Assembly (NCBI GenBank): GCA_035501235.1 | Contig: DATJWN010000361.1 | Span: 11,948-75,947 of the forward strand | Source: Reyranella sp. | GTDB taxonomy: Bacteria; Pseudomonadota; Alphaproteobacteria; Reyranellales; Reyranellaceae | DNA length: 64,000 nt | Reading direction: 5' to 3' | Shown here: positions 8,417 to 48,278 of the stretch, in pieces | Layout: each line of letters starts with the position of its first letter | How positions within the stretch are numbered: position 1 is the first letter of the stretch | Made by a program: the position numbers and the translations under genes | The notes under the pieces: model-generated | Databases searched by the model: none | Told to the model about the DNA's origin: nothing | Seen by the model: the letters and a program-made list of their open reading frames with translations, nothing else

Positions 8417-9118
8417 TCACCCGCCCAGGTGCACGATGCCGTAAACAGCAGCGGCCGAGACCGCTAGCAGCACCAACGCGAGCCAGCCGGAAGCAAACGC
8501 CAAGGTCGGCGCGGCCTCGCCGGAGGGCACGACATGATCGTGTGGCTTGCGGCCGGTGATCATGGCGCCGATCAGGTTCTGGCGCTTCCACACGAGATAG
8601 ACGAGCGCCGCCAGGACGTGCAGCGCGACCAGCACGAGCAGCAGGTTGATCCAGAGATGATGGATCTTCGTCGCCTGGTCGATGAACTTGTCCGAGGCCA
8701 GCCGTGTGAGGGGGCCGCTGACCGTGCCTTCGTCCGTATCGGCGGAGAAGAAGCCGGTGAGGACCTGAAGCAGGGTGGCGAAGATCAGCACCAGCACCAT
8801 CGCCGCGCCCGCCGGATTGTGGCCCGCGTCATGCGGTCCGTCCTTGCCGAGAAGCTCGCGCAGATGGGCGATCGCCGCCGCCGGCCCCCTGACGAAATGC
8901 GTGAAGCGCGCCGTCGTGCTGCCGACGAAGCCCCACAGGATGCGAAAAATCAGCAAGGTGAGGATTCCGTAACCGGACCAGAAGTGAAACTTCATCCAGT
9001 CCCCGCCGGCCCGGCCGGTGACGTAGGACACCACCATCAGCGTCACGAGGGTCCAATGGAACAAGCGTACGGGTAGGTCCCATACCCGGATCGTCCCACC
9101 TTGGCTGTCTCGCTGCAT
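8417..9118 (-). CDS. Cytochrome b/b6 domain membrane protein (hydrogenase cytochrome b-like)
   Basis: VWDLPVRLFHW, GHNPAG, four transmembrane helices with heme-ligand His; divergent from cytochrome c'. Confidence 0.88.
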   Translation of the reverse strand: MQRDSQGGTIRVWDLPVRLFHWTLVTLMVVSYVTGRAGGDWMKFHFWSGYGILTLLIFRILWGFVGSTTARFTHFVRGPAAAIAHLRELLGKDGPHDAGHNPAGAAMVLVLIFATLLQVLTGFFSADTDEGTVSGPLTRLASDKFIDQATKIHHLWINLLLVLVALHVLAALVYLVWKRQNLIGAMITGRKPHDHVVPSGEAAPTLAFASGWLALVLLAVSAAAVYGIVHLGG

Positions 9119-9260
9119 GTGCCGGGTCCTCGTTGTTCAAACGTCTCTACACGCAGACGTGAGGAATTATTCCTTCGGCCGCCGCACGTTCTCTGCGACA
9201 AATACCGGGCCGGCGCCGCGGAAGCCATCGCCGGGGAGACCAAAAACCAAGGGATGGTAC

Positions 9261-9719
9261 ATGAGGAAGAAAGCACTCGTTGCGGCGGTGATTGGCGCTC
9301 TGACTGCCGGTGCCCTGGTGGGCGGCACGACGATCGCGCTGGCGCAGGCCGATATCATCAAGACCCGTATCGACAACCGCAAGGCCACCGGTCCGCTGAT
9401 GCGCGAGATCAAGGCCACGGTCGATGCCAAGGGCGATGCCAAGAAGATCGTCGAGAACGCGGCGAAGCTGAAGACCCTCGAAGAGGCCTTCGACAAGATG
9501 TTCCCCGCGGGATCCGACAAGGGCGAGACGCATGCGCTGCCGGCCATCTGGACGGACACCGCGGGCTGGGCCGCCGCGACCAAGGCCGCGAACGACGCCT
9601 ATGATGCACTCGCCGTCGCCGCGGGTTCGGGCGACTACGACAAGATCGGCCCGGCCTTCGCCAATGTCGGCAAGGCATGCGGCGGCTGCCACACCAAGTT
9701 CCGCGCCAAGCTCAACTAG
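9261..9719 (+). CDS. Cytochrome c' / c556 (class II cytochrome c)
   Basis: Signal peptide MRKKALVAAVIGALT...ALAQ, ALPAIW, C-terminal CGGCHTKFR heme motif. Confidence 0.92.
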   Translation: MRKKALVAAVIGALTAGALVGGTTIALAQADIIKTRIDNRKATGPLMREIKATVDAKGDAKKIVENAAKLKTLEEAFDKMFPAGSDKGETHALPAIWTDTAGWAAATKAANDAYDALAVAAGSGDYDKIGPAFANVGKACGGCHTKFRAKLN

Positions 9720-9738
9720 GCGACGCTTCGGCAAAGAC

Positions 9739-9768
9739 AAAAGGCGACGGGTTTCCGTCGCCTTTTTT
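9739..9768. terminator. Bidirectional intrinsic terminator
   Basis: AAAAGGCGACGG-GTTT-CCGTCGCCTTTTTTT with A/T tracts on both sides, between convergent units. Confidence 0.85.
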
Positions 9769-9790
9769 TGTTGGCCCAAATTCGAACCCC

Positions 9791-9896
9791 AAAAGGGAAA
9801 GGCCGGTCGCTTGGGGAACGACCGGCCTTCCTGGGTGAGCCCGTGGCTGGGGTGGGTGGGTGAACGGCGACGGGGTGGGAAGGGAGTGTCGCCGTG
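9791..9896 (-). ncRNA. Candidate C-rich-loop small RNA, copy A (in the 3' UTR of tetR)
   Basis: Minus strand: ACGGCGAC[ACUCCCUUCCCACCCC]GUCGCCGU hairpin, C-rich linker, then GGAAGGCCGGUCG[UUCCCCAAG]CGACCGGCCUUUCC plus CUUUU. Confidence 0.5.
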
Positions 9897-9910
9897 GTGA
9901 CCTAAGTGAG

Positions 9911-10561
9911 CTAGGCCACCGCCACGGGCTGTGTGGGAACTGTGAGCGCCTGAAGCACGATCGCCTCGGCGGTGAAGCGCCAGGTGCGCGAGGCGTGGAC
10001 CGGCGACAGCCGAAGCTGCTCGCGCATGTTCATCCAGCTGTCGAGACCGAAGGCGACATCGAGAGAGTCGAGCACGAGATCGTGCGAGGCGGGATCGAGA
10101 TTGCCGAGCTCGGTGGCAAACCATGCGGCGAGACGCTCGCGCAGAAGGCGGCGCAACTGGGCGACACCGAGGCCAACAGCGGGCGCCACGCTGCGCACGC
10201 GCTCGGCGAAGTGCCACACCGGCAGCCACTCCTCGAACAGCTCGGAACGATCCGACACCAGGAGCTCGATGCGGTTGGAGAGCGGCGCCGCCATGTCGAC
10301 CGGACGATGGCCCTCGAAGGCACGGCTGACGGCGAGGTCGAAGGCCGCGGCATAGAGGTCGGCGAGGCTGGTGAAATGCTGGAAGAGCGCCCGGCTGGAA
10401 ACGCCGGCGATGGTGGCGATGGCGGCCGAGGTCGGCTCGACGTCGCCGGCCTGGATCAGGTCGAGCGTGGCCTGCACGAGGGCCTGGCGCGTGCGGAGAC
10501 CGCGTACGATGCGGCCGTCTTGCGACCGCGACACGTCGACCGGGAATCCGACAATTTTCAT
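9911..10561 (-). CDS. TetR/AcrR family transcriptional regulator
   Basis: RTRQALVQATLDLI...PTSAAIATIAGVSSRALFQHF helix-turn-helix. Confidence 0.9.
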   Translation of the reverse strand: MKIVGFPVDVSRSQDGRIVRGLRTRQALVQATLDLIQAGDVEPTSAAIATIAGVSSRALFQHFTSLADLYAAAFDLAVSRAFEGHRPVDMAAPLSNRIELLVSDRSELFEEWLPVWHFAERVRSVAPAVGLGVAQLRRLLRERLAAWFATELGNLDPASHDLVLDSLDVAFGLDSWMNMREQLRLSPVHASRTWRFTAEAIVLQALTVPTQPVAVA

Positions 10562-10626
10562 ATTAAAACCAATAGAATATGAATTGCTTTAATGACCGCA
10601 CTTTAACATGAGGCTCAGACCTCGTA

Positions 10627-10646
10627 ACTTGCAAAAATGCATATCT
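10627..10646. promoter_or_regulatory. Repeated upstream box ACTTGCAAAAATGCATATCT, copy 1
   Basis: Identical 20-mer at 11098-11117; 17-nt core again at 15646-15662; about 65 nt upstream of the tetR start. Confidence 0.6.
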
Positions 10647-10825
10647 CGAAGATTTCATGCTCTGATTTTGCTGCATTTTTTTTTTGAGATAGACAGTTTT
10701 GGGGGATCTGATGCTTCAGGCAAACAGCAAAAAGCCGCACCCCGAAGCGCCTAGTCGATTGCTTTTCCTAATTTTTCCGAGGCCGTCAACCGACCGGCTG
10801 TGGATGACGAGTGGAAGATTGGGCC

Positions 10826-10985
10826 CAGAAATGGAAAGGCCGGTCGCTTGGGGAACGACCGGCCTTCCTTGGGAGTCCGCCTGGGTGTGGGGTTATCGAA
10901 GCCTTGGGGTGTGTGGGAAGGGAGGCTTCGATGAGCGGCTTGGGGAGCCGCCGGCGGACTATGGGAAACTTTGGGTGGGCGGCGC
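10826..10985 (-). ncRNA. Candidate C-rich-loop small RNA, copy B (stand-alone; 5' end uncertain)
   Basis: Minus strand: AGUCCGCC/GGCGGACU closing stem enclosing GCGGC[UCCCCAA]GCCGC and UCGAAGCC[UCCCUUCCCACACACCCCAA]GGCUUCGA, then the same 37-nt terminal hairpin as copy A followed by AUUUCU; no credible ORF. Confidence 0.55.
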
Positions 10986-11097
10986 CTCTTGGAAAGCGCG
11001 GCCAATTCTGTGTGAAAAAAGCCTTTCAGATATGAATTACAACTAGCTACGAACGTCTCTAATGGAGAGAACTTAACAAATCAGGTGGCCGACTGTC

Positions 11098-11117
11098 ACT
11101 TGCAAAAATGCATATCT
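11098..11117. promoter_or_regulatory. Repeated upstream box ACTTGCAAAAATGCATATCT, copy 2
   Basis: Exact match to 10627-10646, in the AT-rich intergenic region upstream of sRNA candidate B. Confidence 0.6.
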
Positions 11118-11405
11118 GATTTTTGACAAATCCCTTATTTCCTAAGTATTCGCAGGCGTTTGTGACACTAGATAGTCAAAAAAGGGTAGACAGACTCCTC
11201 GAGAATTATCTCTATTTCCCCTCTTTCCAATTTAAAATCATATAGTTAGCCAATTTTTGGCGGCGCAATATCGCCGACGTCAGTGCAATTACTCTAGAAA
11301 CCAGGTTTGGGCAACAAAGGGTCGCGCTCGGGCCTGTGGGTTCGTGCCGGCTTTCCATGCTAGACGAACGCGCCCTCATTGCCTTCGCGGGGTTCGATCG
11401 TGCGC

Positions 11406-13133: not shown

Positions 13134-13598
13134 ATGACCACGCCGCCGCTTCCCCGCCAGGCGCGTCCCGACATCACGCTTGCCGTGTGCCGCGGCGCCT
13201 GCCGGCTGATGCGCCAGTCGGGCCGCTCGGTGCTGCTGGAGATGCCGCTGCCCGATGGGCGCCGCGCCGACATCTTCTGCGTCGGGCCTGCGGGCGAGCT
13301 CGTGATCGTCGAGACCAAATCCTCGATCGAGGATTGGAAGGTCGACAGCAAGTGGCCGGACTATCTCGACTGGTGCGACCTGCTCTATGTCGCGGTCCCC
13401 GTCGATTTCCCGCAGGCGCTCATCCCCCAGGAAGTCGGATTGATCGTGGCCGACGCCTATGGCGGCGAAGTCCTGCGCCACCCGCCGCGCCGGCCCGTGG
13501 CGGCCGCGCGGCGCAAGTCGTTGCTGGTCGATTGCGCGCGGCTCGCCTCGGAGCGACTCGCGCGGCTTGAAGACCCGGACTTCGTTCAGGGCCTTTAG
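13134..13598 (+). CDS. mmcB: MmcB family DNA repair protein
   Basis: [48 protein letters not shown]; PD-(D/E)XK-like family typical of Alphaproteobacteria. Confidence 0.85.
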
Positions 13599-14881
13599 CG
13601 GGCGCCGAAGGCGCGCTTCAGCTCCGGCACGAGGTCGGTCTTCTCCCACGAGAAGCTGCCGTCCTTCTCGGGCTTGCGGCCGAAATGGCCGTAGGCTGCG
13701 GTCTTCTTGTAGATCGGCTTGTTGAGCGCGAGGCCGCGGCGGATGTTGGTCGGACGCAGCGGGAAGATGTCTGCCAGCGCCTTCTCGAGCTTGCGCTCGT
13801 CGACCTTGCCGGTGCCCTGCGTGTCGACATAGAGCGACATCGGATCGGCGACGCCGATCGCGTAGGCGACCTGGATCAGGCAGCGATCGGCGAGGCCCGA
13901 GGCCACGACATTCTTGGCGAGATAGCGCGCGGCGTAGGCGGCCGAGCGGTCGACCTTGGTCGGGTCCTTGCCGGAGAAAGCGCCGCCGCCGTGCGGAGCG
14001 TAGCCGCCGTAGGTGTCGACGATGATCTTGCGGCCCGTCAGGCCGCAATCGCCGTCGGGACCGCCGACCACGAAGTTGCCGGTCGGGTTGACGAAGAAGT
14101 CCGACGCCTTCTTGGGCATCCAGCCCTCCGGCAGGGACTTCGCGACATGGTCCGCGATCATCTCCTTGATCATGGCGGAGTTGTACTTCTTGCCCTTGGC
14201 ATTGGCCTCGCGGTGCTGCGTGGAGACGACGACCTTGGTCGCGCCGACGGCCTTGCCATTGACGTAGCGCACCGTCACCTGGCTCTTGGCGTCGGGCTGA
14301 AGGTCGCCGAGCTCGCCCGAGCGGCGGGCCTTGCTCAGCACTTCCAGGATCTTGTGGCTGAAGTAGATCGGGGCCGGCATGAACGAGCCCTTCTCGTATT
14401 CCTCCGAATCGCGGCAGGCGAAGCCGAACATCAGGCCCTGGTCGCCGGCGCCTTCCTGCTCGCCGAGATTGCCGCCGTGCTTCTTGGCATTCACGCCCAT
14501 GGCGATGTCGGGCGACTGGCCGTGCAGCAGCACCTCGACGTCGGCGCCGTGGAAGGAGAAGCCATCCTGGTCGTAGCCGATGTCTTCCACGACCTCGCGC
14601 GCGATCTCGGTCAGCGCCTCGCGGTTGACGACCGCATGCTTGCCGAACTTCTTCATGTAGGGCGCAGAAGCGCGGCCTTCGCCCGCGATCACGATCTTGT
14701 TCGTGGTCACCAGCGTCTCGCAGCCCAGCCGCGTGTTGGCGTGGCTGTCGTCGGCGATGCCGAGCTTCACGTCGTTGGCGATGAACGCGTCGAGGATCGC
14801 ATCCGAGATCTGGTCGCTGACCTTGTCCGGATGGCCTTCGGAAACGGATTCAGAGGTGAAGAGATAGTCCTTGAGCGCCAC
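13595..14881 (-). CDS. metK: S-adenosylmethionine synthetase
   Basis: [42 protein letters not shown]; GTG start. Confidence 0.98.
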
Positions 14882-38596: not shown

Positions 38597-39202
38597 TCAG
38601 TCCCTACGCAGCATGAACACCGCCTGCTCGCCGATCAGGTTGGAGAGCAGGGGCGGCAGGTGGATGCGGTTGCTGTTGCGGTCGAGCACGATGGCGCGCT
38701 CGATGCGCACGCCCATGTCGCGGCAGAGCGCGCGGAAATCGTCGATGCTGCAGAGATGGATGTTGGGCGTGTCGTACCATTTGTGCGGCAAGGACGGCGT
38801 CTCGGGCATGCGCCCGCCGAACACCAGCCTGAACCGCACCTGCCAGTGCGCGAAATTCGGAAAGGACACGATCGCGCGCTTGCCCACGCGCAGCATCTGC
38901 TCCAGCACCCTGCGCGGTTCGCGCGTGGCCTGCAGGGTCTGGCTCAGGATCACATAGTCGAAGGCATCGTCGGGATAGTCGCGCAGGTCGGTGTCGGCGT
39001 CGCCCTGGATCACCGAAAGCCCGTTGGCGACGCAGGCGTTCACGCCGGCCTGGCTGAGCTCCATGCCGCGGGCATCGACGCTCTTGGCGACCAGCGAGGC
39101 GAGCAGCGCGCCGTCGCCGCAGCCGACGTCGAGCGCGCGGCCGCTCTGCACCATGTCGGCGATGATCTGCAGGTCGACGCGAATGGGGGCGGCGAGGCTC
39201 AT
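38597..39202 (-). CDS. metW: Methionine biosynthesis protein MetW
   Basis: [33 protein letters not shown]; coupled to metX. Confidence 0.95.
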
Positions 39203-40371
39203 GCGAGACCTCGCACGGCAGCCGCGCCCTTCAGGAAGCCCGCGAGCGTGCGGAACATCTCCGGCTCGTCGAGCAGGAAGGCGTCATGGCCCTTGTCGGT
39301 CTCGACCTCGACGAAGGAAACGTTGGCCGCCGCAGCGTTCAGCGCGTGCACGATGGCGCGGTTCTCGCGCGTCGGGAACAGCCAGTCCGAGGTGAAGGAG
39401 ATCGAGCAGAAGCGCGTGGAGCTGCCCTTGAAGGCGTTGGCCAGCACGCCGCCATGCGCGCCCGCGAGATCGAAATAGTCCATGGCGCGCGTGATGTAGA
39501 GGTAGCTGTTGGCGTCGAAGCGGTCGACGAAGGTCGAGCCCTGATGGCGGAGATAGCTCTCGACCTGGAAGTCGGCGTCGAAGCCGAAGCCCAGCGCGTT
39601 GCGGTCCTGCAGGTTGCGGCCGAACTTGCGCTGCAGCGCCTGCTCCGAAAGGTAGGTGATGTGCGCGGTCATGCGCGCCACCGCGAGCCCGCGCTCGGGC
39701 GCCGTGCCATGCAGGCGATAGTCGCCGCCCTTCCACTCGGGATCGGCCATGATCGCCTGGCGACCGACCTCGTGGAACGCGATGTTCTGCGCCGAATGAC
39801 GCGCGGCGCAGGCGATCGGCACGGCGGCGAAGACACGCCTGGGATAGCTCGCCGCCCACTCCAGCACCTGCATGCCGCCCATCGAGCCGCCGATCACGCA
39901 GAAGAGCTGCTCGATGCCGAGATGATCGATCAGGGCTGCCTGCGCGCGCACCATGTCGGCGATGGTCACCACCGGGAAGCGAAGGTTCCAGGGCTGGCCC
40001 GACGACGGGTCGCGCGCCAACGGCCCCGTGGTGCCCATGCAGCCGCCCAGCACGTTGGAGCAGATGATGAAGTAGCGCGCGGGGTCGAGCACCTTGCCCG
40101 GCCCCACCAGGCTCTCCCACCAGCCGGGCTTGCCGGTCACGGGGCTGTCGTCGGCGACGAACTGATCGCCCGTCAGCGCGTGGCAGATCAGCACGGCATT
40201 CGACTTCGCGGCATTGAGCGCGCCGTAGGTCTGGTAGGCGACGCGAAACGGCCCGAGATCGACGCCGCAGTCGAGCCGCATCGGCCGCTCGGTGCCCAGG
40301 ACCGCGTGGCGGCACTGGGCCAGCGCCTTGCGCTCGGCCTCGGTCAGCTCGTCCTTCAGATCGTCCAGCAC
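39199..40371 (-). CDS. metX: Homoserine O-acyltransferase
   Basis: CHALTGD, SNVLGGC, GGSMGGM, YLSE, GHDAFL; GTG start after GGAG. Confidence 0.96.
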
Positions 40372-40385
40372 AGCGCTCTCCAAAC

Positions 40386-40419
40386 GAAAAGCCCCCGACC
40401 GACAGGACGGGGGCTTTTT
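40386..40419 (-). terminator. Intrinsic terminator (attenuator) in the metX leader
   Basis: AAAAGCCCCCG-loop-CGGGGGCUUUUCGUUU between the riboswitch and the ribosome-binding site. Confidence 0.8.
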
Positions 40420-40427
40420 CGAGCGCT

Positions 40428-40484
40428 CCGACCTTTTAGCGGGGATTAACGTGGCCGCAAGCCGGTCGGCTCAAATTCCACGGA
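40428..40484 (-). promoter_or_regulatory. SAM-II (SAM-alpha) riboswitch upstream of metXW
   Basis: CGUGG-AAUUUGAGCCGACCGGCUUGCGG-CCACG-UUAAUCCCC-GCUAAAA-GGUCGG; P1 stem plus CCGACC/GGUCGG pseudoknot pairing. Confidence 0.9.
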
Positions 40485-40585
40485 TGGGCCTCTATAAGGG
40501 CCGCACCCGCGCCTTGCAACGGCTTTCCTTTGCGCCCGCTCCCCGGACGTAGTATCGCCTCGCCCGCACAGGACTTTACCGATTT

Positions 40586-48203: not shown

Positions 48204-48278
<75 letters not shown>

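Follow-up and report, generated by a model that had tools for sequence, protein, structure and literature searches.

Organization of the tetR locus and its two RNA elements

A 64-kb stretch of Reyranella sp. DNA (contig DATJWN010000361.1), referred to here as the window and numbered in its own coordinates, contains a gene for a TetR-family repressor located between two related structured RNA elements, copy A and copy B. All three are encoded on the minus strand in the order B, tetR, A, and coordinates of their parts refer to this strand unless stated otherwise. tetR (9911-10561) is a 216 aa open reading frame (ORF) matching the Pfam domain TetR_N (PF00440) over residues 29-73 with 24 bits at a cutoff of 24. 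Copy B is free-standing with its core at 10824-10962, and its paralogue, copy A (9787-9930), comprises the last ~20 nucleotides (nt) of tetR, or ~6 codons, together with the 3' untranslated region (UTR). A and B are homologous members of one conserved structured RNA family of Reyranellaceae and probably represent a new family of trans-acting small RNAs (sRNAs) with C-rich seeds under a TetR switch. Genomic G+C is ~65% and that of the B RNA is 65%. Relative loci or stretches from Reyranella-type bacteria are labeled L### and RNA runs from metatranscriptomes X##.

Both copies share the same four-helix architecture consisting of P1, P2, P3, a G-free C-rich linker and P4. The B core (P1-P2-P3-linker-P1'-P4-U tract) scores 159.6 bits with the covariance model (CM) R1 described below and folds into a three-way junction closed by P1, followed by P4. 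The P1 5' strand AGUCCGCC (10953-10960) pairs with 10874-10881 and encloses the P2 hairpin GGCGGC/GCCGCU (10934-10952; loop UCCCCAA, 10940-10946) and the P3 hairpin UCGAAGCC/GGCUUCGA (10896-10931), whose 20-nt G-free loop UCCCUUCCCACACACCCCAA (10904-10923) is nearly invariant across Reyranellaceae. The conserved, G-free linker UAACCCCACACCCA (10882-10895) is unpaired in both minimum free energy and consensus structures. A short AAGG-containing spacer separates the P1 3' strand from the P4 terminator hairpin (10834-10868; loop UUCCCCAAG, 10847-10855), which is followed by a U-rich tail at 10824-10833. Read from the sequence, the ~60 unpaired nt of B contain 0-1 G in total. A motif YCCCAAG recurs in the P2, P3 and P4 loops beside CCCUUCCCAC, with CCAAG present in a leader hairpin.

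The B core begins at 10962, beyond the end given in the preliminary description of this DNA, and is preceded in the window by a ~90-nt putative 5' leader (10963-11054) carrying an additional CCAAG-loop hairpin, P0 (10982-10999, loop UUUCCAAGAG). The predicted 5' end at ~11054 was placed by homology with an RNA end at L092:2015. The leader is absent in the clade L077-L083, where the promoter lies ~20 nt before P1 and the core is essentially the whole RNA. A mechanically called 84-aa ORF at 10751-11005 was rejected as coding sequence, as single-nucleotide indels are scattered through the alignment of B homologues, which shows B to be non-coding.

In copy A, the P1 5' strand GCCCGUGGC (9921-9929) lies within tetR codons and pairs with GCCACGGGC at 9839-9847. 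P1 and the 5' arm of P2 are drawn from the last tetR codons (..CAG CCC GUG GCG GUG GCC UAG), the coding GGUGGCC forming the 5' side of P2, and the same nucleotides are constrained by both tetR coding and A structure. The 5' arm of the P2 hairpin (9896-9920) ends on its loop side with the tetR stop codon UAG (9911-9913); in most A homologues, the stop codon is found within the P2 loop, where UAG, UAA and UGA all occur. P3 (ACGGCGAC/GUCGCCGU, 9864-9895) presents the loop ACUCCCUUCCCACCCC (9872-9887) and is followed by the C-rich linker UCACCCACCCACCCCA (9848-9863) and the P4 terminator hairpin (9797-9831), which is identical to that of B and continues into CUUUUGGGG at 9787-9796. No separate promoter motif was identified upstream of A, and no gene lies downstream for it to precede, the next one being a convergent cytochrome c' gene.

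Among the compensatory substitutions seen in P1 of A are GUG to GUA together with CAC to UAC (L018) and GUG to GCG together with CAC to CGC (L073), and some of these are at the same time synonymous or non-synonymous tetR codon changes. Four species carry an extra palindromic hairpin of 25-40 nt in the P2 loop of A, directly after the tetR stop codon. These independent insertions (L020:3131-3298, L028:3131-3300, L062:3131-3302 and L063:3131-3313; e.g. CGACTTTCCGGTCGGAAAATCG) may represent a small mobile hairpin element. Tolerance of such insertions indicates that the P2 loop has no sequence function in A.

The two copies share a 36-nt hairpin, GGAAGGCCGGUCG-UUCCCCAAG-CGACCGGCCUUUCC, identical at 9796-9831 and 10833-10868. 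Only these two copies exist in the window with up to 3 mismatches allowed, and none were found in 100 shuffles; the direct repeat around the hairpin reaches 49 nt at 92% identity. Likewise, CTCCCTTCCCAC occurs exactly twice in the window, at 9875-9886 and 10913-10924, in P3 loops held by different stems (ACGGCGAC/GUCGCCGU in A vs UCGAAGCC/GGCUUCGA in B). The predicted folds have energies of -54.5 kcal/mol for A (z -6.2) and -81.5 kcal/mol for B (z -8.5), with z-scores relative to dinucleotide shuffles. Several statements of the preliminary description can be refined on this basis. The identical minus-strand terminator-like hairpin of 36 nt is real, and the CTCCCTTCCCAC loops on differing stems are confirmed as described. 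A third loop, UCCCCAA, and a closing stem do exist in B, but A also possesses P1 and P2. Copy A reaches beyond the tetR 3' UTR, its P1 and P2 5' arm using the last tetR codons.

A conserved structured RNA family restricted to Reyranella-type bacteria

CM R1 was built exclusively from 42 distinct B sequences and contains no A sequences. It nevertheless aligns copy A of the window over all 138 model positions (62.9 bits, E ~1e-12), and a scan of the 64-kb window with R1 returned nothing besides A and B, except for the palindromic hairpin read on the opposite strand. In total, R1 identified 139 copies in 83 sources, namely 83 B-type and 56 A-type copies, all of them from Reyranellaceae and nearly all situated at tetR. 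In the alignment of all 139 copies, 98.3% of pair cells are standard pairs, vs 88% in shuffles and 29-50% when partners are slid. Compensatory changes are present in 23 of the 34 pairs (shuffles, 11.4), and each of these measures exceeded all 500 shuffles. All 8 pairs of P1 show compensatory changes in this alignment and covary between A and B types. The divergence of stems with retention of structure and C-rich loops, originally proposed for the pair in the window, is thus borne out at the level of the family.

The B-type alone gives a similar picture: among the 42 distinct homologues, the structure is 98% paired with 5 compensatory pairs vs 1.2 in shuffles. GC-to-AU compensatory changes in P2 were observed in L020, L028, L033, L056 and L087, and P4 is nearly fixed, with 11 of 13 pairs invariant and the others differing by wobble only. 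For the A-type, an analysis of 50 copies with MAFFT and RNAalifold, which does not depend on the model, recovered the same four helices P1-P4.

Of 98 relatives of tetR, the best 80 were kept (66-94% identity). Identity to the window copy averages 92.5% nt for B (74 loci) vs 82.4% for tetR DNA, and in the eight most distant loci B retains 92% vs 73% nt identity for tetR. Copy A averages 77% identity, below the 85% of tetR, with structure and C-rich loops still kept. The B alignment contains 64 invariant columns, many of them in loops, which indicates that the loop sequences themselves are under selection.

Scans based on the loop motif and on TetR, using one genome per species, returned Reyranella-type Alphaproteobacteria only; 'Enhydrobacter aerosaccus' ATCC 27094 is among the matches, and some contigs are misnamed metagenome-assembled genomes. 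A scan for the P4 hairpin across 185,579 species genomes yielded 86 stretches, all Reyranella-type and all with the hairpin beside tetR, apart from copies cut by the end of a stretch and two real extra copies. Copy number per genome ranges from 1 to 3; 1-2 loci were found on complete chromosomes, and in R. massiliensis 521 a single locus holds 2 copies. A and B are both present in this strain (L071) and in ATCC 27094 (L015). The hairpin is therefore not a high-copy repetitive extragenic palindromic (REP) element scattered through the genome, a possibility raised in the preliminary description.

B is found upstream of tetR in essentially every locus, even where TetR is only 56-78% identical, and is kept 1.5 kb from tetR in L054. 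A is restricted to a closer clade; more distant loci have a plain terminator directly after tetR, and then the convergent cytochrome c' gene. This distribution, with A only in the closer clade and B nearly everywhere, makes B the older copy and A a duplicate that joined the tetR 3' end later. Both extra copies are tetR-less. One (L094:3823-3952; R1 100.5 bits) is located at ~7.71 Mb of the complete chromosome NZ_OZ257242.1 without the shared promoter motif, adjoining an ORF which, judged by eye, we take to be SRAP/YedK-like; the same genome carries a degraded A at tetR. The other (L098; R1 114.2 bits) is a duplicate of B including its promoter.

A promoter/operator shared by tetR and copy B

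A 23-nt direct repeat, 96% identical, is located upstream of tetR (10624-10646) and of B (11095-11117) and forms block 1 of a three-block arrangement found at both genes. The B promoter/operator (11055-11119) consists of block 1 AGATATGCATTTTTGCAAGTGAC (11095-11117), block 2 TTGTTAAGTT (11070-11079) and block 3 CATTAGAGAC (11055-11064), and the same blocks make up the tetR promoter/operator (10585-10646) at 10624-10646, 10600-10608 and 10585-10594. Comparison of 81 tetR and 76 B promoters revealed a conserved AGATATGCAnTTTTGCAAGTnAC followed after 15-16 nt by TTGTTAAGT and after a further 5-6 nt by CATTAGAGA. At tetR, the blocks lie 82-86 nt before the ATG in 76 of 81 loci, and the tetR promoter is found 170-250 nt downstream of P4 of B. 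Having its own conserved upstream promoter block and a P4 terminator with U-rich tail, B is free-standing, as had been stated earlier.

Block 1 contains a near-palindrome, AGATATGCATtTtT, conserved at both promoters. An inverted partner site, GAGATAGACAGTTTTGGGGGATCTG (10686-10710, plus strand), lies upstream of the tetR promoter and shares GAGATAnnCAnTTTTG with block 1 in opposite orientation; it appears as a weak third match in several loci and is conserved in upstream alignments. More AGATAG-type half-sites are located at 11026-11038 and ~11170-11188, and AT-rich intergenic islands at 10562-10720 and 11000-11250 house both duplicated promoter regions. Within Reyranella genomes, the exact promoter 18-mer was found at this locus only. 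No wider regulon of the 18-mer was detected, its non-Reyranella matches fitting the ~17 expected by chance. Comparison of the conserved blocks with sigma-70, sigma-54 and extracytoplasmic function (ECF)/EcfG-type promoters (xTnAC-N16-17-GTTA) gave no convincing fit. Since a near-palindrome is present at both promoters and nowhere beyond this locus, TetR is the likely binder of the shared motif (AGATATGCATtTtT; candidate site AGATATGCATTTTTGCAAG) and would thereby co-regulate tetR-A and B, a proposal drawn from the arrangement of these sites.

Presence of B RNA in metatranscriptomes

RNA evidence was taken from Logan contigs of metatranscriptomes, which are strandless and may include DNA; it is therefore indirect, though consistent. 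B RNA is present in these data, and the family is thus apparently expressed. In a soil run (X39), word depth reaches 57-106x over L092:2015-2182 and drops to zero in both flanks, and Illumina adapter sequence directly abuts both ends of this interval, which indicates a dominant short insert with fixed ends. Whole contigs corresponding to L092:2028-2185 and 2030-2182 were recovered from X51 and X61, two runs of 11 and 8 million letters, and contigs from X27, X30, X34 and X54 include P4. The discrete transcripts called for in the preliminary description are therefore seen for B, in the form of contigs covering B without flank coverage and, in one run, adapter-flanked ends. The 5' end at L092:2015 directly follows the conserved CAnnAGAGAC block, and its window equivalent is ~11054. 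The RNA is presumed to derive from the minus strand. One further run listed as 'RNA?' (X26) shows even depth over tetR and B, is probably DNA-like and was set aside as uninformative. When RNA runs were searched for A with the shared hairpin left out, no run contained A.

Neighboring genes and other features of the window

By Pfam, the neighbors of the locus encode TetR_N, cytochrome c', cytochrome b561 and Sel1-repeat proteins. The cytochrome b561 (minus) and cytochrome c' (plus) genes are divergent and occupy 8417-9719. The latter converges on tetR and copy A, and this synteny was observed in all loci seen, even those without A. Further away in the window, a SAM_alpha riboswitch of the alphaproteobacterial type (45.8 bits, 40416-40491, minus) lies directly 5' of an alpha/beta-hydrolase ORF; this Abhydrolase_1 ORF (39202-40371, minus) is probably a metX-type homoserine acyltransferase. 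A tRNA gene with anticodon loop CUUCCCAAG is located at 48204-48275 (plus, 69 bits).

Proposed function of copies A and B

We consider it probable that A and B act in trans as C-rich-seed sRNAs. B would be the ancestral free-standing gene, transcribed from its own promoter into an RNA extending from ~11054 to the P4 terminator at ~10826. Its putative seeds are CCCUUCCCACACACCCCAAG in the loop of P3, YCCCCAAG in those of P2 and P4, and the linker CCCCACACCC. They would base-pair with G-rich segments of target mRNAs, typically at ribosome-binding sites, thereby inhibiting translation or altering mRNA stability. CcsR/cuckoo, 6C and RsaE RNAs act by pairing with G-rich ribosome-binding sites, and it is from loop composition and this analogy that an anti-Shine-Dalgarno (anti-SD) function of the C-rich loops is suggested. 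Copy A would be a younger duplicate that is transcribed within the tetR mRNA and terminated together with it, folding only when ribosomes are off the last tetR codons or after nucleolytic release, by which it may become a separate RNA. A ligand of TetR would induce tetR-A and B jointly, and the sRNAs would serve as the post-transcriptional output of a TetR switch.

A number of observations weigh against this proposal. No target could be identified: duplexes predicted by RNAduplex between the four unpaired regions and 88 start regions of the window, which represents only ~1% of the genome and limits the scan to that share, were the same as the coding background. A single match reached the 1% tail, equaling chance expectation, with metK at -22 kcal/mol. 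This S-adenosylmethionine (SAM) synthetase gene (13598-14881, minus) lies ~3 kb from B, and its synteny with the locus holds for at least 11 Reyranella genomes. Of all window start regions, its conserved G-rich leader GCCCUGCCCGGAGUCCAGUGAC..GUGGGAGGG forms the best duplex with the P3 loop, a lead at chance level only; in 11 other species, the CUU prefix of its SD sequence is not conserved, although complementarity of the G-rich leader to this loop persists. Moreover, the invariant CCCAAG is not a textbook anti-SD sequence, and a sigma-70 promoter scan of 9600-11400 returned 0 sites. With regard to the RNA, a boundary directly after the P1 3' strand and before P4 (L092:2182, window ~10875) recurs in X39, X51 and X61, which may be due to processing of the 3' end or to interference of the very stable P4 hairpin with library preparation. 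Some metatranscriptome contigs extend 30-40 nt beyond P4, and given this run-past and the strandless nature of Logan contigs, the strand and exact ends assigned to B are provisional. For A, RNA is represented by one low-depth contig in which flanking sequence is covered as well.

Alternatively, B could be an abundant structured non-coding RNA that binds a protein via its repeated YCCCAAG loops, or that serves as a scaffold or cofactor, which we regard as rather unlikely. CsrB/RsmY RNAs provide a precedent, with GGA loops that sequester CsrA. One short motif recurs in the P0, P2, P3 and P4 loops of B, loops and helices alike are conserved more strongly than is usual for a base-pairing sRNA, and the junction closed by P1 is more elaborate than the structure of most Hfq-dependent sRNAs; in addition, B is seen even in very small metatranscriptomes, suggesting high abundance. 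However, no candidate C-rich-RNA-binding protein is encoded next to B, the P2 loop motif of A is replaced by a stop codon and accepts 25-40-nt insertions, and the loops of A drift within C/U-rich sequence space. Such drift and insertions in A fit flexible seeds better than fixed protein sites. An extended form of this idea is less probable still: B would be a very abundant, ultra-conserved RNA whose 3-4 CCCAAG loops titrate a C-rich-RNA-binding protein or play a structural role, gated by a ligand-sensing TetR, with A linking the folding of a second decoy to translation termination at tetR. If true, this would constitute a circuit leading from a small molecule via TetR to a decoy RNA.

A cis-regulatory role appears very unlikely. 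Here, P1-P2-P3 would form a riboswitch-like aptamer with P4 as a platform controlling read-through into tetR, and A would stabilize or terminate the tetR mRNA at its 3' end. The closed junction followed by a terminator hairpin, located upstream of and co-oriented with tetR, would suit such a role, as would the RNA contigs passing P4, and involvement of the tetR stop codon in A makes a tie to tetR translation or termination plausible. Yet action in trans rather than in cis is favored because B ends in a terminator that is followed by a separate, conserved tetR promoter, 170-250 nt beyond P4 and at a fixed distance from the ATG, because B is displaced by 1.5 kb in L054 and tetR-less in L094 and L098, and because A has no downstream gene to control. 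Junctions and loops are also G-free and C-rich, unlike a ligand pocket rich in purines, a non-exhaustive look revealed no conserved antiterminator pairing, and no Rfam riboswitch matches at A or B. The simplest explanation, that the shared hairpin is merely a duplicated terminator or REP-like repeat surrounded by chance structure, can draw on the limitation of the 36-nt identity to the terminator hairpin and on the tendency of GC-rich genomes to fold well by chance. It is refuted by the copy number (2 per 64 kb, 1-3 per genome, all at one locus), by the full-length alignment of A to the B-only CM over 138 positions, by covariation in 23 of 34 pairs, by fold z-scores of -6 and -8.5 against dinucleotide shuffles and by the conservation of B exceeding that of the adjacent coding gene.

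Soil, freshwater and engineered water systems commonly harbor Reyranella-type bacteria; to our knowledge, nothing is known about their RNA regulators. Comparative support for the family described here is strong. A promoter/operator common to tetR and the sRNA gene, and found nowhere else in the genome, predicts a circuit with TetR as the sensor and an sRNA as the output. Copy A may in turn offer a snapshot of a free-standing sRNA becoming embedded in the 3' end of a gene.

Comparison with known RNA families

Searches of the whole window against Rfam 15 returned no family at gathering score anywhere close to A and B, and the region 9650-11150 gave only noise at E<=10. With no Rfam match for A or B, the suggestion in the preliminary description of an undescribed sibling-sRNA family retains its novelty. 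Matches to ar15, STnc40 and CsrC at E<=10 all fall on the cytochrome c' terminator (9673-9773), outside A and B. AbcR/ar15 (RF02345), likewise an alphaproteobacterial sRNA family, reached 28.5 bits against a gathering score of 40 at this terminator (9673-9769, plus). A literature search on Reyranella small RNAs found nothing relevant.

Outside the Proteobacteria, C runs in loops or linkers of the actinobacterial 6C RNA and of RsaE/RoxS from Firmicutes pair with G-rich ribosome-binding sites, with several seeds per RNA. A and B show no sequence or CM similarity to these RNAs (Rfam E<=10) and differ from them in phylum, fold and loop motif (CCCAAG/CCCUUCCCAC). A number of 3'-UTR-derived sRNAs use the terminator of their mRNA, including SorX from ompR-1, CpxQ and CcsR. 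By sequence, A similarly uses the tetR mRNA terminator. Unlike these sRNAs, it starts inside the coding sequence, encloses the stop codon in a hairpin and has a free-standing sibling, B, with its own promoter.

The closest parallels are found in the cuckoo/CcsR1-4/NfeR1 RNAs (Rfam ar14) of Rhodobacterales and Rhizobiales, alphaproteobacterial siblings with C/U-rich, G-free loops that are proposed or shown to be anti-SD seeds. The cuckoo family consists of 2-4 adjacent hairpins with loops carrying CCUCCUCCC (PMC4615179), and the CIN1 context of CcsR contains a neighboring DUF1127 gene (PMC8034643). CcsR/cuckoo copies are tied to one small protein gene, lying in its 3' UTR, its 5' UTR or, in Sulfitobacter, on both sides, and in R. 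sphaeroides, ccaF1-CcsR1-4 represents a case of 3' UTR sRNAs released by RNase E (PMC8034643, PMC4615179). As in cuckoo/CcsR, stems of the Reyranellaceae family diverge by compensatory change with loops retained, and CUCCUCCC is even present within P3 loops of a few A copies (L040). In contrast to cuckoo/ar14, the fold is a P1-closed three-way junction plus terminator rather than a row of 2-4 hairpins, and the loops contain CCCUUCCCAC.. and YCCCCAAG; the ar14 CM gave no match at gathering score in the whole window and none at E<=10 in 9650-11150. CCUCCUCCC is absent from the whole window, in line with the earlier remark that the loops differ from those of cuckoo; a count of CCTCCTCCC, the cuckoo motif, on both strands gave 0. 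The gene accompanying the RNAs encodes a TetR regulator instead of a DUF1127 protein, the locus promoter is not of the RpoHI/HII type known from CcsR, and distribution is limited to Reyranellaceae. A and B are thus a new family, absent from Rfam, that belongs to the kind of alphaproteobacterial sibling sRNAs with C-rich loops.

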